DNA of 64,000 nt from Escherichia coli (lineage in GTDB: Bacteria; Pseudomonadota; Gammaproteobacteria; Enterobacterales; Enterobacteriaceae), in NCBI RefSeq assembly GCF_044324875.1, contig NZ_CP172185.1, one strand, 5' to 3'. Shown piece by piece: positions 2,902 to 54,780 of this stretch (position 1 is its first letter; every line of letters begins with the position of its first letter). Made by a program: the position numbers and the translations under genes. The notes under the pieces are model-generated. The model worked only from the letters and a program-made list of their open reading frames with translations, was not told the origin of the DNA and ran no database searches.

Positions 2902-3702
2902 AGCTGGGGGACTGGTATCTTTCAGCTCACTGATTTTGTTGCTGAACCTGATATATCCTTCGGTTTTCCACAACCAGGGGAAGGGTGTCATCATAAGGCG
3001 TGATGACACCCTGAATTCCCATCCTGTATCTGCAGAAAATTTTTCGTAAATAAATTAATTTAATAACTAAAAAGAAAATACAATAAGCAAAATATCAATT
3101 ACAGCATGTTCGTTTGTTTAAAGAACCTGCTGGTCCTGCCATTAATATTACCTGCTGATTGCTTCACATCCGGATTCCTCGCACTGCGCGCGGGTTATTG
3201 TTTCGTTTTCGGCCACGGGGTCGCCAGGGCTCTGTTTGCAGGCCATGATGGCCTGACCTGTACTGTTTCTCAGGCACTGAGATGTCCGTTTACGCCATTT
3301 GTTCCCGGATATCCTTAACCTCTGACGTTTGTTCCCTGCCCCTCTGTCTGATAACGAATACGCTCACAACGCACAGTACTGAACAATACCGACAACAACA
3401 TGTCTTACATGAAATTCGCTGTAACATCCACCGGAAAACATTTTCAGATATCGGATGAGGTACTACTTCCATTGACAGCGCGAGGTAACAAAATTGATGG
3501 TAACTCTGACCATTAACCGTAAACCGCAGGGTATTTTCAGTAAATCACCGGCAACGCCGCTGCAGGATAAAACGGACACAGCATACAAAATGAAGGCCGG
3601 TGACCAGATACCACAGTTGAACGATAAACAGAAACCTGCTGATAAAACACCGTGGCGACATGACAAAACGCCAGAGCAAAAACCGTAAGCGCATTATTCG
3701 TC

Positions 3703-4005
3703 TTGTGGAACTCTGGCCTGAGTCATTCAACCGGGAAAAAAACAAAACCACTTAAAGTGGGGATACCTGACGACCTGATACAGGATATCGCCATCCGAGA
3801 ACTGGCGTTTGGCGCTGGTACATTACATGCAGCAGTGGCGTCTTATGTGCAGTCTCCGTGCTATTACCGTGCGTTAATAGCAGGTGGCGCCCGTTACAAC
3901 CTGAACGGTCAGCCGTGCGGGGAAGTGACACCACAGGAACAGAAAGAGGCAGAGACCCGTTTAATGATGCTGAATGACCGACGAAAAGACAGAAAACCTC
4001 GTTGA
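3703..4005 (+). CDS. FinO/ProQ-like RNA-binding domain protein (possibly frameshifted with upstream ORF 3494..3688)
   Basis: KPLKVGIPDDLIQDIA...YNLNGQPCGEVTPQEQKEAETRL resembles the ProQ N-terminal FinO domain (RPLKIGIFQDL...DLDGNPCGELDEQ); track start is TTG. Confidence 0.4.
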   Translation: MWNSGLSHSTGKKTKPLKVGIPDDLIQDIAIRELAFGAGTLHAAVASYVQSPCYYRALIAGGARYNLNGQPCGEVTPQEQKEAETRLMMLNDRRKDRKPR

Positions 4006-4022
4006 CTGCACAACAGCGCTGT

Positions 4023-4848: not shown

Positions 4849-5085
4849 TCATGCTGCTGCTCCTCGTGATTCCTCAATTCGCTGCTGCATCCACTGCTCC
4901 ACTTCACTTTTGTACCAGCGGCTGCTGCGCCCCAGTTTGATGGGTTTAGGGAAATGGCCTTCACTGATCAGCTTGTAAAACCATTTGTCGGTCATACCAG
5001 TGAAGCTGGTGATGTAGTTCATGTCGATCAGGGGATCGTCGGCACGCAGCAATACGCTGTCGTGACCTGTCATTGAGGTCAACAT
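4849..5085 (-). CDS. alpA: AlpA-family phage/island transcriptional regulator
   Basis: 78 aa; MNYITSFTGMTDKWFYKLISEGHFPKPIKLGRSSRWYKSEVEQWM is the AlpA HTH signature. Confidence 0.8.
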   Translation of the reverse strand: MLTSMTGHDSVLLRADDPLIDMNYITSFTGMTDKWFYKLISEGHFPKPIKLGRSSRWYKSEVEQWMQQRIEESRGAAA

Positions 5086-5153: not shown

Positions 5154-5756
5154 TCAGAGCTGGCCTGCTACGGGATACCAGGGATTACCGGCGAGGTAAC
5201 GGGCTTCCGGATCGCGCACACCACGACGATCGCGGGCGAAATCACTGAACGCCCATATCAGCTCTTTGAGTCTCTCTTCGCAGTCCGGTGAACAACTGTC
5301 CAGCACCACATCCCGGGTTATCTGTTTCTGGTACGGTGCTGCTTCACCCGGTGACGCGAAGCCCAGTACGTTGCTCCAGGCATCCAGAATCAACCGGTCC
5401 AGCTCAGGGCCGTCGAAATATTCCTGTCTGACGCACAGCACCACGTGGTATTCCGGTTTTTCAGGATGACGGGTCAGGAGCCAGCAGAGGTCGCGTCCGG
5501 GGGTTGCATTCATCAGCGCACTGACGGTTTCGATAAAGGCCATACCGAACCAGGTTTTTCTGTCGCTGAAGATGTTGCCATGTTCCCCCGGCAGACGAAG
5601 CAGGATCCGCCGTATCCTGGAGCCGGACTGCTCGCGCAACACACGGTTGAGAACGCCGATGATTTTGTTCTGATAAGATGGCCAGAAGGGCGCCATGCTA
5701 TAGTCGAAATAAGGGATAGCATTCATAAGATATGTTCCGTTATACGCAGCCCACAA
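5154..5756 (-). CDS. Inovirus Gp2-family (YfjI/YagK-like) protein, paralog 2
   Basis: 200 aa; island backbone position immediately after alpA. Confidence 0.55.
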   Translation of the reverse strand: MWAAYNGTYLMNAIPYFDYSMAPFWPSYQNKIIGVLNRVLREQSGSRIRRILLRLPGEHGNIFSDRKTWFGMAFIETVSALMNATPGRDLCWLLTRHPEKPEYHVVLCVRQEYFDGPELDRLILDAWSNVLGFASPGEAAPYQKQITRDVVLDSCSPDCEERLKELIWAFSDFARDRRGVRDPEARYLAGNPWYPVAGQL

Positions 5757-6082
5757 CGCGTCCTGCCCGTGGATGCGCTGACGTGTTATGGCTTGCGTAT
5801 GGGGTTGATGGAATAAGTGAAAAACCGCGGCAGAACGGGAAGATCAGGTAACCGACAAGGGACAGAACACCGGATGCAGGTTCAGAATGAATGATCTCCG
5901 TTGACTTCGGTTCACATCATTAAGCAGGACAGTAAGGTTTTACCGACGGAGTGTTTCCAGGAGCGAAAGCAGAGAAAAATACCGTTGCATGACTTCAGGA
6001 CGACTTTTTCAGAAAACGAGCTAAGGGCGTCAGCCAACGTCCTGTAGCATAAGCTCAGGCACCGGATGTCGTTTTACAGGGC

Positions 6083-6814
6083 TCACCTGCCATCCAGCAG
6101 ACGCCCCGGCCCACGACTGCAACCATAATTACGTTGCCCGGAACCGTCATGCTGCTTCGTCTCATATTTCACGAGATAACTGGCTCTGTTCCGGGCTTTC
6201 TGCAGCGCTTCCACATCACCACGCTTGATCCAGAGAACAGCGGCTTCACCCGGCTTTTTTTCTGAAGCCTTCCTGGTATCAGAACATCCACCCGACAAAG
6301 GCGTGTCATCGGAAGAAGGGCGAGCATCAGACGATGCTGGTTTACGGGAAGGCGTCCACCTGGAAAAATGGACCAGGCCATCGCCTTGCCAGGCCTCAAG
6401 ATGCAGGGCGCTGCACCATGCCTCCAGGATCATCGTCGCCAGCGAAGATGGTTCGCTGAAATCCCCTGGCGAGCACCAGGTATCTTTGTTGAGCAGCAAT
6501 ATCACGTGATAATGTTTCCTGCCTTTTTCCTTGCCAAACTCCCGACACCAGAAATAACGCAGAGTGGTTGCACGCACACGCTTGTTGGCACGTCGTTTTT
6601 TCCGCTGGTAAGCCTGGATTTTGGCTTTCAGGGATTCGAAAAAACGAGAAATCACCGCTGAATCCGGATCGGGATCCATGATGGTGACAGGCATATACTC
6701 AGGGAAACGTAAATCCACCCGGATTAACGAGACGGCACGGTGCTGCGACAGGGCACTGTCGAGAAGGCTGTCAAAACGGGATAACCAGTAAGCATTGTGT
6801 ATTGGTTGATTCAT
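6083..6814 (-). CDS. Inovirus Gp2-family (YfjJ/YagK-like) protein, paralog 3
   Basis: 243 aa; LIRVDLRFPEY ... HYHVILLLNKD pattern. Confidence 0.6.
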   Translation of the reverse strand: MNQPIHNAYWLSRFDSLLDSALSQHRAVSLIRVDLRFPEYMPVTIMDPDPDSAVISRFFESLKAKIQAYQRKKRRANKRVRATTLRYFWCREFGKEKGRKHYHVILLLNKDTWCSPGDFSEPSSLATMILEAWCSALHLEAWQGDGLVHFSRWTPSRKPASSDARPSSDDTPLSGGCSDTRKASEKKPGEAAVLWIKRGDVEALQKARNRASYLVKYETKQHDGSGQRNYGCSRGPGRLLDGR

Positions 6815-6849
6815 GATGAGAGATCTCCGTTGATTTGGATTGACTTCAC

Positions 6850-8390
6850 ATCATTAATCACCGCGGTAAAACTTTACGGCATCATGTCATTAAGCAATGC
6901 TACAACTCTCTGATTAAGAGTGATTGAAACGGAACAAACCATCCCGGAACGAAAAGATAATCCTGCACACAGCAGCAAAACACGCAACAACAGCATGAAT
7001 GGATTTAAAAACGACATGGACGACGAGAAAAGCCTGAAGGGAAAAGGATCCACAGAACATTCGAACAAAACACCAGAAACGCAACCAGAACGCTTCCTGG
7101 CAATGCAAATCAACAACAACGCCAAAACCTACAGCTTAATCACACAACTCAATCACGAATGCGAATGACACGTTTAAAACCTGTTTACAGATAACGCCGT
7201 AACACGATCATCCCCATCACCATCAGAATCGATTTTCTCATCCCGAAAATGTTACGTTTCACTACGCACCATAAAAACGATTAACCATCGATAACGTAAA
7301 TCTCATCTGAATCAAAAAACCAAAACCAATCATCACACTTTCGCAATGCAAGAAGAAAAACCACATCATGACGAAAACAATGACCTTACATGAAAAAGCA
7401 AAACGTCAGGAATCGTTAATGCCTCAATCTGATTGTTATCAAAACATCCAGAAAGTCGTTTAACAGAATCGTCGTAAGCACATCGAAAAGAACGTCAGAT
7501 CACCTCAGGAAAGTTCGGGTTGATTTAGCGTAAAGATACTTTTCTCAGCTTAACGTCGAAACACAAACCAAAAACCACAAACAACCAAAGCTCAGGAAAG
7601 GTTAAACGTCACATCAGTAAAATCGAATAGCAGATTGATTGCTTAAACAGGAAAGATTGTTTTACAGCAGCATTAAACTGATTTAGTTAACGTAAAATCA
7701 GAACTGACAGGTTTACTAACTTGGATGTGTATCAGTTCAAAAATGTGTACAGCAATGCGTAATGAAACACATTTAAAGGAGATTAATGGGAAAAGTGTGT
7801 AAATGCGTAAACATGCACTAATGAATCACTGAAGGAATACATACAAAACGACTTAATGAAAACATAAAAGGACCTAATGGAAAAGGTGTATATAATACCA
7901 TATCCGACATTCTCAACATCTTAAGACATCCATGCAGACTGAATGTTGGTTTCAGTTTTTCACGGTAAGCATGAATCTTTTCTGTTCAAAAGCAGAGCAG
8001 ATTTACTCTGGAATTATTTTTCTTACTCCGTATTCTGTACAGCAAAAACTTGTGCTAACTTTACAGCAAACCATCATAATCAGCGTCTGTAGTCCCATCG
8101 CTTTACCCCATGAAAGTGAATCCATATGATGTGAGAGAGATAAGTCATCGTATCCGGTAAACACTGCTTACTATAACATAAGATCATTCAGTCAGTTTTA
8201 TCTCTGAACTGACGATTATGGCATGCTCATTTATATGGCTCACAGAGGAGTGTTATTATCCGTAAGCTTTAATCATCAAATCACATGACCATACCAAACT
8301 GGCGCTATATCAGCTCATTTGACGCTCATTCCCTTTAGATTTCTTTATGTGTTTTTTGTCGATAATTAAAATGTAATATAAATTTAATAT
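6850..8390. other. About 1.5 kb ORF-poor, strand-skewed (A+C-rich top strand) intergenic region with recurrent short motifs
   Basis: No ORF of 60 aa or more on either strand between about 7170 and 7930; recurring AACGT(C/A)A..ATC, TCAGGAAAG and TAATGRA motifs. Confidence 0.6.
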
Positions 8391-8397
8391 TTTCACA

Positions 8398-9621
8398 TCA
8401 TAAACACCATTTAAAACCATCATCCTGAACATCATACAACAATATATTTTTACTAAAGCATGAATTGTATATTTCTATTAATTCAGGAAAATTATCAGGA
8501 TTCACCTTTAAATTCAACTGAATGTTACACTTAATTTCACTCAGCAGTTCTTCATGCGTGGATTTTATTATCCCTTTATCATAATCTATAAATACACACA
8601 TGTTTTTCATGAATTCAAACCCTTTTCCTGTATACAGTTTGATGAATGCCACAAGAGCAAACATTTCAAGATGCAGCCATAATGCCACGTGAGTTTTTCG
8701 CAAAGTATAAAAAATTGAATTCGCCACTTTTTTACTTATTGCTCTTTTGTACTGTGAGTGCGCCAGATTCAGTAGTGGCAATTCTCTCTCGATAAATGAA
8801 AGTGAAAAAGGCGGGTAAATTGATGTCGGAAATATTTCAGGTCTTATGATATTTTCGATTTCCACCATAAATCTATCCATAGAACGAAAATCATTTTCTT
8901 TTTTTATTCTGGTATAGAGACCGCCTTTATTCCTTACTGCGACTTTTTTTCGTGCTATCCCCCCCAACATTTCCTCTAATTGTTTATTTATCTTCGTATC
9001 ATTAAATACAACCATTCTTCTTATCATCCTGGGAAGGATGATAATATCAGAGCTTGAATCACTTGAACGGCAATTATTATTGATCCATGCAACTTCAAGT
9101 TGAAGTATCGGAACATTAAATTCTCTGGGGTTAATAACTCTCTGATATTGTTTTTTGTATGCGTTTTCATTAAGATATTCTCTGCTGTAGAGAAACTTAT
9201 AGCAATATAATCTGACAATATCCTTTATGTAAGATTTAAATGAGTCACCTGTAACAGATATATTTTTTCTTCTCAGTAACTCCTGTGTATTGAGCCATTC
9301 CCGTGACCGGAGTACTCCATTATGAAGACTTTTTCTTACTTGCTTTGAATTGCGCAATTGATGTAATATTTTTGCGTCCTCAACAATTCTCTTTCCCGTT
9401 TGATTTCTTGCAGCATCTATTACTCTGTCAAATATCTCCCGGTCCAGACTTTTGTCATATTTACTGATTATACGACAAATATTCCTGACCCGACGGTTCT
9501 CTTTATTTCGTTTCCATAACTGATAATGATCATCACATAACCTCAGGGCATTTGCCTCATCAAATTCTGAAACAGGATTGCTGCATTTTTTATTCCGACA
9601 GATACCTTTGTTTTTAGCCAT
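8398..9621 (-). CDS. Hypothetical protein, 407 aa, low-GC orphan
   Basis: Long ATG-initiated ORF with purine-rich SD; Lys/Arg/Asn-rich; N-terminal Cys-x4-Cys ... Cys-x2-His; no family recognised. Confidence 0.6.
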   Translation of the reverse strand: MAKNKGICRNKKCSNPVSEFDEANALRLCDDHYQLWKRNKENRRVRNICRIISKYDKSLDREIFDRVIDAARNQTGKRIVEDAKILHQLRNSKQVRKSLHNGVLRSREWLNTQELLRRKNISVTGDSFKSYIKDIVRLYCYKFLYSREYLNENAYKKQYQRVINPREFNVPILQLEVAWINNNCRSSDSSSDIIILPRMIRRMVVFNDTKINKQLEEMLGGIARKKVAVRNKGGLYTRIKKENDFRSMDRFMVEIENIIRPEIFPTSIYPPFSLSFIERELPLLNLAHSQYKRAISKKVANSIFYTLRKTHVALWLHLEMFALVAFIKLYTGKGFEFMKNMCVFIDYDKGIIKSTHEELLSEIKCNIQLNLKVNPDNFPELIEIYNSCFSKNILLYDVQDDGFKWCL

Positions 9622-9721
9622 ACTCTTCTTCCCGTCAATGGAAAAATTTTCACGTCCATATTACCTGACTGAGAGGCCGGATTAATGTGATCCGGTTCAG
9701 TGAAATCAACAGGATAACGGT

Positions 9722-10606
9722 ATGTCATTCAGCCATTCTTCCCTCTCCGCACACGTAAAGTCACATCTGACCTTTCTTCCTGAAGAAATTCGCCAGAAAA
9801 TCCTTGAACATCTTCGCAGCGTCATTCAGTACGAACCCGTTATTGGCATTATGGGTAAATCCGGTGCCGGAAAAAGCAGCCTGTGCAATGCCATTTTTCA
9901 GTCCCGTGTCTGCGCCACGCATCCGCTGAACGGCTGCACCCGTCAGGCTCATCGTCTTACCTTTCAGCCCGGTGAACGAAGAATGACGCTGGTCGATCTG
10001 CCCGGCACTGGCGAAACACCACAGCATGATCAGGAATACCGGGCACTTTACAGTCAGTTACTGCCCGAACTGGATCTGATTATCTGGATCCTGCGGGCTG
10101 ATGAACGTGCGTATGCTGCCGACATCGCCATGCATCAGTTTTTACTGAATGAAGGTGCCGATCCCTCGCGTTTTCTGTTTGTTCTCAGCCATGCCGATCG
10201 CATCCACCCGGCTGAAGAATGGAACAACCAGAGCAGCACGCCATCCCGTCAGCAGGAACTCTCACTGGCGACGGTGACAGCCCGGGTGGCAACCCTGTTC
10301 CCTTCATCATTTCCGGTACTCCCCATAGCCGCTCCTGCCGGCTGGAATCTTCCGGCATTTGTGTCTCTGATGATCCACGCCCTGCCACCACAGGCAACCA
10401 GCGCGGTTTATTCGCATATCCGGAATGAAAAGCGCACTGCGCAGGATCAGCAACACGCACAGCAGGCTTTTGGTGACGCCATCGGCCAGAGTTTTGACGC
10501 TGCCATTGCCCGGTTCAGCTTTCCGGCCTGGATGCTGCAGCTTCTGCGCAAAGCCCGTGATCGCATTATCCGCCTGCTGATCACACTGTGGGATCGCCTG
10601 TTCTGA
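9722..10606 (+). CDS. YeeP/YfjP-family GTPase (50S ribosome-binding GTPase-like)
   Basis: 294 aa; P-loop GIMGKSGAGKSS and DLPGTGE switch motif. Confidence 0.85.
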   Translation: MSFSHSSLSAHVKSHLTFLPEEIRQKILEHLRSVIQYEPVIGIMGKSGAGKSSLCNAIFQSRVCATHPLNGCTRQAHRLTFQPGERRMTLVDLPGTGETPQHDQEYRALYSQLLPELDLIIWILRADERAYAADIAMHQFLLNEGADPSRFLFVLSHADRIHPAEEWNNQSSTPSRQQELSLATVTARVATLFPSSFPVLPIAAPAGWNLPAFVSLMIHALPPQATSAVYSHIRNEKRTAQDQQHAQQAFGDAIGQSFDAAIARFSFPAWMLQLLRKARDRIIRLLITLWDRLF

Positions 10607-45236: not shown

Positions 45237-46328
45237 ATGCGTTTTCTGCGCCGACCAATATCGCTGCGCCAACGGCTGATATTGACCATTGGGGCCATTT
45301 TGTTGGTGTTTGAGCTGATCAGCGTCTTCTGGCTATGGCATGAAAGTACCGAGCAGATTCAGCTGTTTGAGCAGGCGCTACGCGACAATCGCAACAACGA
45401 TCGCCACATCATGCGTGAGATCCGCGAGGCGGTCGCCAGCCTGATCGTCCCCGGCGTCTTTATGGTCAGCCTGACGCTATTTATCTGCTATCAGGCGGTA
45501 CGCCGCATCACCCGGCCGCTGGCGGAGCTGCAAAAAGAGCTGGAAGCGCGCACCGCCGACAACTTAACGCCTATTGCCATTCACAGCGCCACCCTCGAAA
45601 TCGAAGCGGTGGTTTCGGCGTTGAACGATCTGGTCAGTCGCCTGACCAGCACGCTGGATAACGAAAGGTTGTTTACCGCTGACGTCGCGCACGAACTGCG
45701 AACGCCACTGGCGGGGGTGCGTTTGCATCTGGAACTGCTGGCGAAAACGCATCACATTGATGTAGCACCGTTAGTGGCTCGACTTGATCAGATGATGGAG
45801 AGTGTCTCCCAGCTGCTGCAACTGGCGCGTGCCGGACAGTCATTTTCTTCCGGGAATTATCAACATGTAAAACTGCTGGAAGATGTCATTCTCCCCTCGT
45901 ATGACGAACTCAGTACCATGCTCGACCAGCGACAGCAAACCCTGCTATTGCCAGAGAGCGCCGCCGACATCACCGTTCAGGGTGATGCAACCCTGCTGCG
46001 GATGTTATTGCGAAACCTGGTAGAAAACGCCCATCGTTACAGCCCGCAAGGCAGCAACATTATGATTAAGCTGCAAGAAGATGGCGGAGCGGTCATGGCC
46101 GTTGAAGATGAAGGACCGGGTATTGATGAGAGTAAATGCGGGGAGTTGAGTAAAGCGTTTGTACGTATGGACAGCCGTTATGGCGGGATTGGTCTGGGGT
46201 TAAGTATTGTCAGCCGCATTACACAGTTGCATCACGGGCAGTTTTTCCTGCAAAACCGGCAAGAGACTTCCGGCACGCGGGCCTGGGTACGGCTGAAGAA
46301 AGATCAGTACGTGGCAAACCAGATATAA
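45237..46328 (+). CDS. basS: Sensor kinase BasS (PmrB)
   Basis: Track start is TTG at 45228; first ATG at 45237 gives 363 aa. Confidence 0.9.
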   Translation: MRFLRRPISLRQRLILTIGAILLVFELISVFWLWHESTEQIQLFEQALRDNRNNDRHIMREIREAVASLIVPGVFMVSLTLFICYQAVRRITRPLAELQKELEARTADNLTPIAIHSATLEIEAVVSALNDLVSRLTSTLDNERLFTADVAHELRTPLAGVRLHLELLAKTHHIDVAPLVARLDQMMESVSQLLQLARAGQSFSSGNYQHVKLLEDVILPSYDELSTMLDQRQQTLLLPESAADITVQGDATLLRMLLRNLVENAHRYSPQGSNIMIKLQEDGGAVMAVEDEGPGIDESKCGELSKAFVRMDSRYGGIGLGLSIVSRITQLHHGQFFLQNRQETSGTRAWVRLKKDQYVANQI

Positions 46329-46393
46329 AGAAAGCTGCTGACCACCAGCACGCTGAACACGGTAGTTAAACTTTCATAAACACGGTTTTTCAT
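46304..46393 (-). CDS. pmrR: PmrR, 29-aa membrane peptide; not in ORF track
   Basis: Manual translation MKNRVYESLTTVFSVLVVSSFLYIWFATY; 3' end overlaps the basS 3' end convergently. Confidence 0.8.
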   Translation of the reverse strand: MKNRVYESLTTVFSVLVVSSFLYIWFATY

Positions 46394-46504
46394 TGCACTC
46401 TCCTCCGTTAACCTGGAGGAGAGTATGCGCGTCAGAGATTAAGTGAACCTTAAGACTTCAATTGGCCTGATAAGACAGCGTCACATCAGGCCATCCGTTT
46501 CAGC

Positions 46505-52114: not shown

Positions 52115-52210
52115 TATTGTGATCGGTAAGCCGGATAAGGCGCTCGCGCCGCATCCGGCAACGATGCCGACAGCCTGATGCGACGCTGACCGCGTCTTAT
52201 CAGGCTTCCC
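52115..52210. repeat. REP/BIME-type extragenic palindromic element
   Basis: GCCGGATAAGGCGC...GCATCCGGCA and GCCTGATGCGACGCTG...CTTATCAGGC motifs. Confidence 0.6.
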
Positions 52211-54679: not shown

Positions 54680-54780
54680 GTAAGTCGGATAAGACGCCAC
54701 GGCGTCGCATCCGACAATGTGCAGACGTTGATGCCGGATGCGGTGCAAGCACCTTATCCGGCCTACAGACCGGAGCCAAA
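54680..54780. repeat. REP element between phnD and phnE
   Basis: GTCGGATAAGACGCC...GCGTCGCATCCGACA and GCCGGATGCGGTGCAAGCACCTTATCCGGCCTAC. Confidence 0.6.

Follow-up and report, generated by a model that had tools for sequence, protein, structure and literature searches.

The main finding of this study is that the gene-free DNA at positions 6815-~8025 of the 64-kb window, i.e., the whole stretch of DNA that we analysed, is a conserved non-coding backbone unit of a genomic island widespread in E. coli. We propose, with a probability of roughly 0.42 for the two statements taken jointly, that this unit is a long divergent intergenic control region between two backbone operons of the island, and that it acts in cis as a control or origin region of a nickase module, its middle being a skewed spacer prone to slippage. 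It is from its context, distribution and conservation, its repeat cluster, the absence of a coding or RNA-structure signal and the HUH character of the protein encoded next to it that we infer binding, nicking, replication or transcription at this region. The maintenance, copying and movement of these islands are poorly understood, and their backbone brackets a slot that exchanges defence and virulence cargo. An HUH nickase gene with a constant 1.2-kb non-coding partner makes nickase binding and cleavage, as well as replication of the excised island, testable. If the region were merely a promoter plus filler, a tempting "long non-coding RNA" candidate would be removed and an annotation gap explained.

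Of 5426 complete E. coli genomes, 1482 carry the unit, at up to five copies per genome and with ~1970 copies in all; the island backbone thus occurs in over a quarter of the complete genomes of this species, often in multiple copies. There are 52 full-length carriers, and LH50-c and APEC E19035 are examples of strains that have the island. At every E. coli locus compared, the unit lies directly upstream of a gene of the inovirus Gp2/YagK-YfjJ family (hereafter Gp2 family), and the DNA past the far side of that gene and past ~8025 differs between loci. The initial annotation had placed the region at 6850-8390, which holds for the conserved unit but not for 8026-8397. This last stretch goes with the neighbouring cargo gene and could be aligned only to islands with the same 407-aa gene (L005, L010, L004 and L012), and homology between lineages with different cargo ends at ~8025. 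Absence of both transcription and conservation across related islands had been named in advance as a reason to dismiss the region; the unit is kept among lineages that are ~25% diverged. Outside E. coli, a scan of genome contigs returned homologues in two MAGs only. Viral contigs contained none, phage records showed no DNA similarity to the region, and all four plasmid matches come from E. coli and contain this same segment of the island. A counterpart of the 1.2-kb region is absent from K-12, as is the region itself from SpLE1 of O157 Sakai, which we looked at for published transcript data. Esr41 maps elsewhere in OI-43. Literature searches on the gene family, the GTPase genes and island sRNAs turned up no account of it. 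The features of the unit and its surroundings are collected in Table 1.

Table 1. Coordinates of the non-coding unit, its component parts and the adjoining genes (positions in the 64-kb window).
Feature	Position	Strand	Remarks
Inovirus Gp2/YagK-YfjJ family gene, 243 aa	6083..6814	-	HUH-type Rep/nickase-like; always accompanied by the non-coding unit
Near-invariant 5' region of Gp2-family gene	6815..6900	-	RBS GGAG within palindrome GAGATCTC; candidate proximal promoter
Strand-skewed tract	6900..7600		A+C-rich on +, G+T-rich on Gp2 strand; low constraint, indel-rich, partly dispensable
Hairpin + U-run, terminator-like	7075..7097	-	Not universal; from terminator scan
(CCATCA)n hexanucleotide repeat	7214..7225		Variable copy number, 2 copies here
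A/C-only run, 31 nt	7559..7589		~21 nt are a lineage-specific insertion (alignments)
Best-kept internal block	7587..7700		0.80-0.90 mean pairwise identity
Short direct-repeat cluster	7720..7890		TAATGR at 7760, 7785, 7819, 7854 and 7875, interleaved with GTGTA (7727-7887)
AT-rich promoter-like block	7885..7920	-	0.84 identity; consensus match
Right end of conserved backbone	7921..8025		Ends in TTTACTCTGGAATTATTTT (8002-8020); left border of cargo slot
3' flank of cargo gene	8026..8397	-	Inherited with cargo, not backbone
Cargo ORF, 407 aa, function unknown	8398..9621	-	Occupies variable slot
Right border of cargo slot	9647..10606	+	~75 conserved nt, hairpin CCGGAT-N7-ATCCGG at 9677-9695, then GTPase gene
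YeeP/YfjP-like GTPase gene	9722-10606	+	First gene of other backbone operon

In the Gp2-family protein, all three motifs of HUH/rolling-circle Reps are present, together with the fold of an HUH nickase, and Pfam ties its family to G2P. As expected for the origin of an HUH/rolling-circle replicon, the region has an adjacent Rep gene with HUH and catalytic Tyr motifs. In the nickase-side operon, the Gp2-family gene is followed by a 200-aa ORF and then by an AlpA-like excisionase/regulator, and the opposite operon reads GTPase-DUF932-antirestriction-RadC-CbtA. A ProQ/FinO-family gene is found in the same module and is frameshifted in an identical island. The slot between the unit and the GTPase gene holds different genes in other islands. 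Here it is occupied by the 407-aa ORF, which matches nothing in NCBIfam, PADLOC or PHROG and is pseudogenised in L001, L020 and L022, and its 3' flank shows no significant fold (8150-8400, minus strand, z -1.1). No repeats that could serve the site-specific exchange of cassettes were found to flank this slot.

The region had originally attracted attention because of an A+C-rich top strand, the lack of ORFs and recurrent short motifs. The first two properties are borne out. Base composition over 6900-7600 is A.414, C.250, G.153 and T.184, and A+C reaches 0.669 in the 700-nt window 6933-7632, the top value among such windows in the 64-kb stretch and ~4.6 sd over its mean (0.514, sd 0.034). Similarly, 7169-7931 (763 nt) is the longest gap in the window that lacks an ORF of at least 60 aa on either strand. 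Median C/G in 78-nt windows is 1.54 over 6900-7600, compared with 1.06 window-wide, and the skew weakens beyond ~7600 (7601-8030: A.37, C.16, G.18, T.29). The skewed middle is unstable. In L012, ~1.15 kb stands in place of 7002-7301, and L013 and L014 have deletions of ~140 and ~55 nt, respectively. The (CCATCA)n repeat counts 6, 6, 8 and 9 copies in L020, L022, L005 and L021, islands that are 95.6-98.3% identical or of the same lineage, and is missing from all other lineages. The 31-nt A/C-only run exceeds the longest such run in any of 2000 shuffles (mean 14.2, maximum 30). The cause of the A/C skew, the main point of the initial annotation, is not accounted for by the explanation that we prefer, nor is its size or sign.

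The short motifs, whose statistics are all post hoc, hold up in part. Of the recurrent AACGT(C/A)A..ATC sites, those at 7491, 7605 and 7689 are exact (3 AACGTMANATC observed vs 0.30 expected), those at 7294 and 7402 have another spacing, and 7553 reads AACGTCG; the shorter AACGT[CA]A occurs five times in 6900-7720 vs 0.37 in local dinucleotide shuffles. Exact copies of the motif TCAGGAAAG are confined to 7505 and 7592, 7405 reading TCAGGAATC, and there is an additional CAGGAAAG site at 7648. The clustering of TAATGRA is confirmed, with four sites in 7760-7881 vs 0.19 expected locally, against a chance-level count across the whole window (16 vs 17). No longer repeat unit was found behind these motifs, A-tracts show no 10-11-bp periodicity, and an excess of AACCA is not significant once the 1024 five-mers tested are allowed for. 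Two known types of element were considered and rejected on motif content: a CsrB/CsrC-like sponge with many conserved GGA-containing repeats, because CAGGAAAG occurs three times here and most lineages read CAGAAAAG, CAGTCGG or CAGGGCC instead, and an iteron-type oriV with regularly spaced 17-22-bp iterons and an AT-rich unwinding element, because tandem units and a perfect DnaA box are absent (five one-mismatch DnaA boxes lie in 7726-7991, their window-wide count being at chance, 117 vs 113).

Conservation along the unit is uneven. Mean pairwise identity in 25-nt bins from 6815 is 0.99, 0.94 and 0.90 (1.00 over 6800-6849), so that the ~90 nt next to the Gp2-family gene are better kept than the gene's own third codon positions (86-94%); GTPase third positions, our neutral yardstick, are at 0.76-0.79. 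Further away, the blocks 7290-7339, 7590-7689 and 7890-7914 stand at 0.80-0.90, with other bins as low as 0.2-0.5. Averaged over its length, the region is 72-83% identical vs 76-79% for GTPase synonymous sites, which is about neutral. In the near-gene segment, a PWM scan gave a candidate minus-strand proximal promoter, TTGCTT (6897-6892), N15, TAAAGT (6876-6871). Against the islands that have diverged most, megablast aligned nothing but the internal block 7587-7700, with 93.6% identity in records matching only query positions 738-847. Next to it, the direct repeats, which are irregularly spaced (12-56 nt), are kept as a cluster in homologous position while motif and copy number differ by lineage: CTTAGTAAAA-type and ACGTGTAT units replace TAATGR in other lineages, L009 and L003 have an extra unit, and several units are missing in L010 and L004. 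The array of protein-binding sites suggested by the initial annotation is compatible with these repeats, which lie beside the conserved AT-rich block and are candidate sites by sequence, although they make up only part of the region. In the AT-rich block, the minus strand has an extended -10 TGGTATTAT (7900-7892) and a -35-like TTGAGA (7916-7911), with a predicted start near 7885 toward the Gp2-family gene, and the plus strand has TATAAT at 7891-7896. The form TGnTAYTAT is kept in 15 of 15 sequences (13 aligned, plus L016 and L017). Hairpins are less constant. That at 7981-8010 is not conserved, and the one at 7075-7097 (~-13 kcal/mol), in which one pair differs between lineages by a compensatory change from G-C to A-U, belongs to a segment missing from L012, L013 and L014. 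An AlpA antitermination unit, in which the published binding element GGGACGN5GGTA lies between -35 and -10 and is followed by an intrinsic terminator (PMC7969949), was also considered and rejected: the window has TGTCG-N5-GGTA (3/6 + 4/4), and this spacing is lost in other lineages.

In the explanation that we prefer, the unit would function at the DNA level, in cis, with its activity concentrated at both ends. The near-invariant ~90 nt beside the nickase gene would hold a promoter, the 5' UTR and possibly a target of the nickase. At the distal end (7590-8025), the repeat cluster beside the AT-rich promoter-like block may bind a protein of the module, either the origin-binding domain of the HUH nickase or the AlpA-like regulator, and this segment could be the origin/nick region and/or the operator of a promoter reading back toward the nickase gene. 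The A/C-skewed middle (6900-7600) would be a loosely constrained spacer, lengthened and shortened by slippage of A/C-rich simple sequence. This explanation is supported by the fixed linkage to the Gp2-family gene, the uneven conservation, the persistence of the repeat cluster, the 15/15 TGnTAYTAT and the dispensable, slippage-prone middle. A copy-number gain at an integrase plus Gp2-family gene in gut-passaged isolates of E. coli Nissle (10.1101/364505) offers weak, indirect support. Several observations go against it. Short, irregular repeats could stem from neutral local duplication, average evolution over the length of the region is near neutral, the region yielded no conserved hairpin that offers a candidate nick site (the hairpin at 7915-7948 is kept only in part), and no nick sequence is recognisable in it. 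Moreover, the nickase family does not need the region in this form because yfjJ and yagK of K-12 are without any such region. A more specific version, in which the YagK/YfjJ HUH nickase, itself uncharacterised, would have its origin of replication and/or transfer in this region, with the distal repeats and AT-rich block bound and nicked and the G+T-rich strand displaced, appears unlikely to us. If true, it would provide a replication/mobilisation mechanism for the CP4-like islands of E. coli, very common elements that are mostly regarded as cryptic prophages unable to move.

Comparison with distant Gp2-AlpA modules (34-43% identity) speaks partly for and partly against the explanation that we prefer. 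In its favour, a gene-free upstream stretch of 449-1356 nt is present in 9 of 10 examined, including a cargo-less Providencia layout (L023) in which 449 nt separate a divergent GTPase gene from Gp2 and then AlpA, and direct repeats of 22-32 nt occur in three of the five upstream gaps scanned (L018, L023 and L026). The upstream gaps of K-12 yfjJ and yagK are only 152 and 271 nt, without skew. Against it, no motif is common to the region and the upstream regions of distant Gp2-family genes.

The most serious competitor, which we nevertheless consider rather unlikely, is that, beyond ~90 nt of promoter and 5' UTR, the region is mostly functionless spacer, neutral DNA hitch-hiking with a conserved gene, in which the skew is an inherited accident amplified by A/C-rich slippage and the repeat cluster reflects local duplications. 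An average divergence that equals or exceeds synonymous divergence, the tolerance of large replacements and deletions, the active slippage seen in the VNTR and the A/C-only run, the lack of a cross-lineage motif and the absence of skew in 8 of 10 distant modules all fit this scenario. What it explains poorly is why there should be blocks of 0.84-0.90 identity and a 15/15 AT-rich block 1 kb from the gene, why ~1.2 kb of gene-free DNA should persist over ~25% diverged lineages at up to five copies per genome when E. coli usually deletes useless DNA, and why long gaps should recur upstream of distant family members. The same AT-rich block is central to another proposal, in which a minus-strand promoter at ~7892-7916, starting near 7885, would make a long untranslated leader, a ~1.07-kb G/U-rich, C-poor RNA running into the nickase-AlpA operon; being C-poor, it would escape Rho, and hairpin/U-run attenuators might be overridden by the AlpA-like protein. 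The extended -10 points toward the gene in all 15 sequences, minus-strand RNA has G.25 vs C.15 (the C/G bias of the opposite RNA having been given above), C makes up 7% of the Providencia spacer on that strand, the hairpin and U-run at 7097-7075 have their one compensatory change, and AlpA of P. aeruginosa is a processive antiterminator (PMC7969949, PMC9371919). Conversely, promoter and terminator are consensus matches only, the terminator scan gave no excess over shuffles, the hairpin is absent in three lineages, the AlpA-binding element is not conserved here, a rival proximal promoter candidate exists, and eight distant modules have no skew. Such a leader seems to us quite improbable.

Transcripts of other kinds find still less room, and the two other possibilities raised by the initial annotation, a structured RNA and a dead gene, most likely do not apply to the region. 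For a long structured RNA, searches of 6600-8500 against Rfam 15 gave no match at gathering score and, at E<=10, chance-level ones only, the best being an HtrA thermometer (20.8 bits vs 52) and STnc550 (19.6 vs a gathering score of 48). The latter, at 7587-7700, is apparently due to chance, as the alignment covers just both ends of a 388-nt model. Folding z-scores of 150-nt windows within the conserved unit lie between -2.4 and +1.9, whichever strand is folded, and form no consistent signal, alifold found no consensus structure over the 13-sequence alignment, and divergence is near synonymous. The proposed covariance check across homologous islands revealed almost no covariation, the block 7885-8030 folding at -5.06 kcal/mol with double changes at 2 of 15 pairs. 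An unstructured, A/C-rich plus-strand ncRNA, acting as a protein sponge or as a Rho-loading zone that stops backbone-to-cargo read-through, is a different matter. Plus-strand RNA of 6890-7414 is predicted to be nearly structure-free (MFE values between just -6 and -17 kcal/mol per 150 nt), with C>G, and by composition this hypothetical transcript alone would be an ideal Rho substrate (C-rich, G-poor, unstructured, >=~80 nt); recurring CAGGAAAG/GGA motifs and the ProQ/FinO-family gene in the module point the same way. We nonetheless regard it as very unlikely, since no conserved plus-strand promoter was found (AAAACT, the -10 of the sole candidate, is poor), most lineages have lost the CAGGAAAG sites, no Rfam family matches, and the ProQ/FinO gene is frameshifted in an identical island. 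Finally, RefSeq annotates short, non-conserved "hypothetical proteins" inside the region (one of 82 aa at 6920-7168 in this island and one of 57 aa in L005), which could suggest a former gene ruined by frameshifts and stop codons. This is hardly credible: there are 28-42 stops per reading frame, six-frame translations match no family in NCBIfam or PHROGs at E<=0.1, indels of 11 and 17 nt interrupt the annotated ORFs elsewhere among the lineages (inter-lineage indels are of 1, 10, 11, 17 and 21 nt), and neither phage DNA nor any plasmid beyond the four from E. coli resembles the region.

The cis-acting control or origin region that we favour has partial parallels in several known systems. The origins of parvoviruses and AAV, in which a Rep-binding element of tetranucleotide repeats accompanies a nick site, differ from our region: sequence identity is 9-14%, the terminal hairpin is absent here, and the repeat motifs differ and are irregularly spaced in our region. 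In the rolling-circle double-strand origins of the pMV158 type, direct repeats form the bind locus and a hairpin the nic locus. They share with our region direct repeats near an AT-rich conserved segment and an adjacent Rep-like gene, but here a nic hairpin was not identified, the distance from gene to repeats is ~0.9-1.1 kb, and the only plasmid homologues are the four E. coli plasmids with the same island segment. In Ff phages (M13/f1), the intergenic region is where the nickase binds to repeats and nicks and where the promoter of gene II lies, and, as in our island, several hundred gene-free nucleotides lie immediately upstream of a gpII-type HUH nickase gene. The Ff region is shorter (~0.5 kb vs 1.2 kb), conserved hairpins were not found in ours, and a 6-kb ssDNA phage differs from a chromosomal island tens of kb long whose region has no similarity to phage records. 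The alpA-alpBCDE antitermination system of P. aeruginosa differs in that our region has not conserved its binding element and that three lineages lack the terminator-like site; it nevertheless resembles our module in having an AlpA-family gene in an operon and a promoter-like block that precedes hairpin/U-run sites on its strand. A further parallel is offered by yfjJ and yagK in CP4-57 and CP4-6 of K-12. Although they are without the 1.2-kb region and have the gene order yfjI-yfjJ, they belong to the same protein family, with 35% identity and the same invariant motifs. Furthermore, they reside in the same type of island, with AlpA, a YfjP/YkfA GTPase, DUF932, antirestriction, RadC and a type IV toxin-antitoxin, and have a similar cargo/defence slot beside the gene, filled by abpAB and rnlAB in CP4-57.

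The main finding of this analysis is that the flagged stretch at 6850-8390 is real and conserved as a unit. The conserved unit (6815-~8025) we tentatively read, at a probability of about 0.4, as a divergent control region separating the island's two backbone operons, with functional ends and a spacer middle. The window contains a CP4-like E. coli genomic island, and an annotated island in strain LH50-c is 99.7% identical to it over the flagged stretch. From gene order and strands, the stretch lies upstream of the gene of the inovirus Gp2/YagK-YfjJ family (Gp2-family gene, 243 aa) and downstream of the cargo gene. Beyond the GTPase gene come DUF932, antirestriction, RadC/JAB, DUF987, a YeeU/CbtA toxin-antitoxin pair and DUF4942 genes. 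All loci fetched for comparison (handles with L) have a constant order: the Gp2-family gene is followed by 1.2-2 kb lacking real genes, then by variable cargo and the GTPase. Alignment of 13 copies showed that cargo-independent homology runs from 6815 to ~8025, ending in TTTACTCTGGAATTATTTT (8002-8020), that 8026-8397 is alignable solely among islands sharing the cargo gene, and that backbone homology restarts ~75 nt ahead of the GTPase start codon; no repeats flank the cargo slot. Past the Gp2-family gene, on its 3' side, lies a second variable slot (5700-6082, and homologous positions in L005-L015), whose content depends on the island: AlpA with a hypothetical gene, a restriction endonuclease, TIR proteins, IreA or YfjI. 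Since variable DNA lies on both sides, the constant unit consists of the Gp2-family gene together with the 1.2 kb upstream of it. Of 5426 complete E. coli genomes, 1482 carry the stretch by megablast, at one to five places per genome and always on chromosomes, with at least 80% query coverage at a place in only 52 genomes. The region was absent from phage records, viral contigs and K-12, and only four plasmids, all from E. coli, carry it.

Features of the window and of homologous loci (identities of the unit and of codon positions are between the window and other lineages, those of conserved blocks are mean pairwise identities)
Feature	Position	Strand	Remarks
ProQ/FinO-family RNA-chaperone gene	~3509-4017	+	same module; placed from L001 5660-6168; also L013 175-651; frameshifted in an island identical to the window, intact in another lineage
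AlpA-like excisionase/regulator	4849-5085	-	
200-aa ORF	5154-5756	-	
Inovirus Gp2 family gene	6083-6814	-	non-coding stretch comes next; third codon positions 86-94% identical
Non-coding unit	6815-~8025		72-83% identity
Conserved block	6815-6889		0.90-0.99 identity; 6800-6849, 1.00
Conserved block	7240-7339		0.83-0.90 identity
Conserved block	7415-7489		0.84-0.87 identity
Conserved block	7590-7689		0.80-0.90 identity
Conserved block	7715-7814		0.82-0.86 identity
Conserved block	7890-7914		0.84 identity
(CCATCA)n	7214-7225		L005 2864-2911; L020 663-698; L021 661-714; L022 662-697
Cargo ORF, 407 aa	8398-9621	-	NCBIfam, PADLOC and PHROGs gave no match; annotated pseudogene (internal stop or frameshift) in near-identical islands L001, L020, L022
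Perfect hairpin CCGGAT-N7-ATCCGG	9677-9695		inside the conserved 75 nt ahead of the GTPase start codon
YeeP/YfjP-like GTPase	9722-10606	+	third codon positions 76-79% identical; C-terminal part matches PADLOC model LeoBC, 3.8e-7
sRNA STnc630 (Rfam)	46297-46462	-	181 bits
naRNA4/REP-type element (Rfam)	52129-52206	+	85.5 bits
naRNA4/REP-type element (Rfam)	54683-54763	-	64.6 bits

The strand skew and the lack of ORFs described in the initial annotation were both borne out. The A+C fraction of 0.669 in 6933-7632 (700 nt) is the highest anywhere in the 64-kb window, where the mean is 0.514 and the sd 0.034. On the plus strand of 6900-7600 the base fractions are A.414, C.250, G.153 and T.184, and 7169-7931 is the longest gap in the window without an ORF of at least 60 aa on either strand. 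The recurrent short motifs are present, with less regularity than had been described. In statistics that are all post hoc, AACGTMANATC has 3 sites against 0.30 expected and, relative to local shuffles, AACGT[CA]A has 5 against 0.37, CAGGAAAG 3 against 0.02 and, in 7700-7900, TAATGR 5 against 0.46; no longer repeat unit underlying them was found in the stretch. Part of the skew is simple-sequence growth. A 31-nt run of A and C only (7559-7589) exceeds the longest in 2000 shuffles (mean 14.2, maximum 30), and ~21 nt of it are an insertion private to the window's lineage. The (CCATCA)n tract, with 2 copies in the window and 6, 6, 8 and 9 in close relatives, thus differs from 2 to 9 copies within one lineage, whose close copies are 95.6-98.3% identical over the flagged stretch, and could reflect either a contingency-type repeat or simple slippage in a non-coding region. 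No specific cause for the size and sign of the skew was found.

Mean divergence of the unit is about that of synonymous sites in the GTPase gene and greater than that of synonymous sites in the Gp2-family gene. It is uneven, several bins having only 0.2-0.5 identity next to the conserved blocks. The middle is dispensable: 7002-7301 is exchanged in L012 for ~1.15 kb (L012 2592-3736) that includes an annotated 176-aa hypothetical ORF (L012 3075-3605), and ~140 nt and ~55 nt are deleted in L013 and L014, respectively. Another locus, L016, is enlarged similarly to L012. Over the Gp2-family gene and ~90 nt directly in front of it (6083-6900), lineages are 93-100% identical, versus 72-83% on both flanks (L005-L015). 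This uniformity suggests that gene conversion or constraint at the nucleotide level is centred on the 5' end of the gene. At the distal end, 7720-7890 holds five TAATGR interspersed with GTGTA, and other lineages have there five to six CTTAGTAAAA-like motifs and four to five A(C/T)GTGTAT, with one extra unit in L009 and L003 and several fewer in L010 and L004. The cluster adjoins a conserved AT-rich block whose minus strand carries TTGAGA (7916-7911) and an extended -10, TGGTATTAT (7900-7892; TGATACTAT in other lineages), TGnTAYTAT being kept in L016, L017 and all 13 sequences of the alignment. From this predicted promoter, a consensus match only, transcription would begin at about 7885 and head for the Gp2-family gene, 1.07 kb off.

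The neighbouring protein has all three motifs of rolling-circle/HUH initiators. Across 11 sequences, including K-12 YfjJ and YagK, RVDL, HYH with hydrophobic residues after it, and Y213-L-x-K216 vary little or not at all down to 35% identity; the protein matches PHROG replication-initiation families (8e-8 and weaker) and its relatives carry Pfam REP_ORF2-G2P. HUH enzymes act on a specific site of their own element, commonly adjoining their gene. Distant Gp2-AlpA modules (34-43% protein identity; Brenneria, Providencia, metagenomes) have 449-1356 nt of gene-free DNA upstream of the Gp2-family gene in 9 of 10 modules fetched; the gaps upstream of K-12 yfjJ and yagK are only 152 and 271 nt. Direct repeats of 22-32 nt occur in three of five distant gaps scanned, and no sequence motif common to the upstream regions was found across lineages. 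The Providencia heimbachae locus L023 has a cargo-less layout (GTPase, 449 nt, Gp2, AlpA), and its spacer (L023 2552-3000) has 7% C on the Gp2 strand and a GC skew of +0.43, matching the E. coli region in polarity; no skew is seen in the other eight distant lineages. The L023 spacer also contains CTATGTGTTT repeats and has no sequence similarity to the E. coli region. In gut-passaged E. coli Nissle, copy number was reportedly gained at an integrase and a Gp2-family gene (10.1101/364505), an indirect hint of local replication. Related islands of Pseudomonas that carry alpA, radC and Gp2-like genes are reported to be defence islands that can be transduced (10.1101/2024.08.29.610337).

Under the control-region reading, the functional parts would most likely be the ~90 nt adjoining the nickase gene and the distal 7590-8025, where the repeat cluster and AT-rich block may bind a module protein. 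The distal segment would be the origin/nick region, the operator of the promoter that faces the nickase gene, or both, and the skewed middle would be a loosely constrained, slippage-prone spacer. Cargo is inserted at the distal edge. The proposed array of protein-binding sites is compatible with 7720-7890, a short-repeat cluster of candidate sites. That the region is instead a largely functionless spacer is a serious if unlikely alternative, consistent with the mean divergence and the deletions in the middle; the conserved blocks and the TGnTAYTAT match argue against it.

Less likely still is a long Rho-resistant leader RNA with attenuation, an idea that overlaps the control-region reading. 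By composition, a minus-strand transcript would be the opposite of a good Rho substrate, and a hairpin with a U-run (7097-7075, minus strand) shows one G-C to A-U compensatory change; this hairpin is missing from three lineages, and a promoter/terminator scan gave no excess over shuffles. The same scan bears on the proximal promoter candidate TTGCTT-N15-TAAAGT (6897-6871, minus strand), a consensus match only within the near-invariant part. An unstructured plus-strand RNA or Rho-loading zone is improbable. A plus-strand transcript would be C-rich, G-poor and unstructured, by composition a good Rho substrate (median C/G 1.54 versus 1.06 window-wide); as such RNA, 150-nt pieces of 6890-7414 fold at only -6 to -17 kcal/mol. 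The long structured RNA once proposed found no support, as Rfam gave no match to the stretch at gathering score (chance-level matches only at E<=10), neither strand had a consistent fold signal, and the best-kept distal block folded at a consensus -5 kcal/mol with two compensatory pairs. A decayed gene, to which the small annotated "hypothetical proteins" might point, is very improbable: these are not conserved, each frame has 28-42 stops, indels between lineages measure 1, 10, 11, 17 and 21 nt, and a six-frame NCBIfam and PHROG search of the stretch returned no family.

We found no description of the region in the literature, and tests for an Rfam family, an iteron/DnaA-type oriV, a CsrB-like sponge, the published AlpA-binding element and a pseudogene were all negative. 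The evidence points to something of an ordinary kind, regulatory or origin DNA that serves the replication module of a mobile element, together with filler; it does not favour a new RNA or element class. Among features of rolling-circle origins, a Rep-like gene is present, the short repeats are candidate Rep-binding sites and no nick hairpin was found. Membership in any of the following origin classes is not established; by layout, the closest analogue is the Ff phage intergenic region in front of gene II, the nearest in protein fold are parvovirus Rep/NS1 origins, and the nearest in the arrangement of repeats and AT-rich DNA are the double-strand origins of rolling-circle plasmids.
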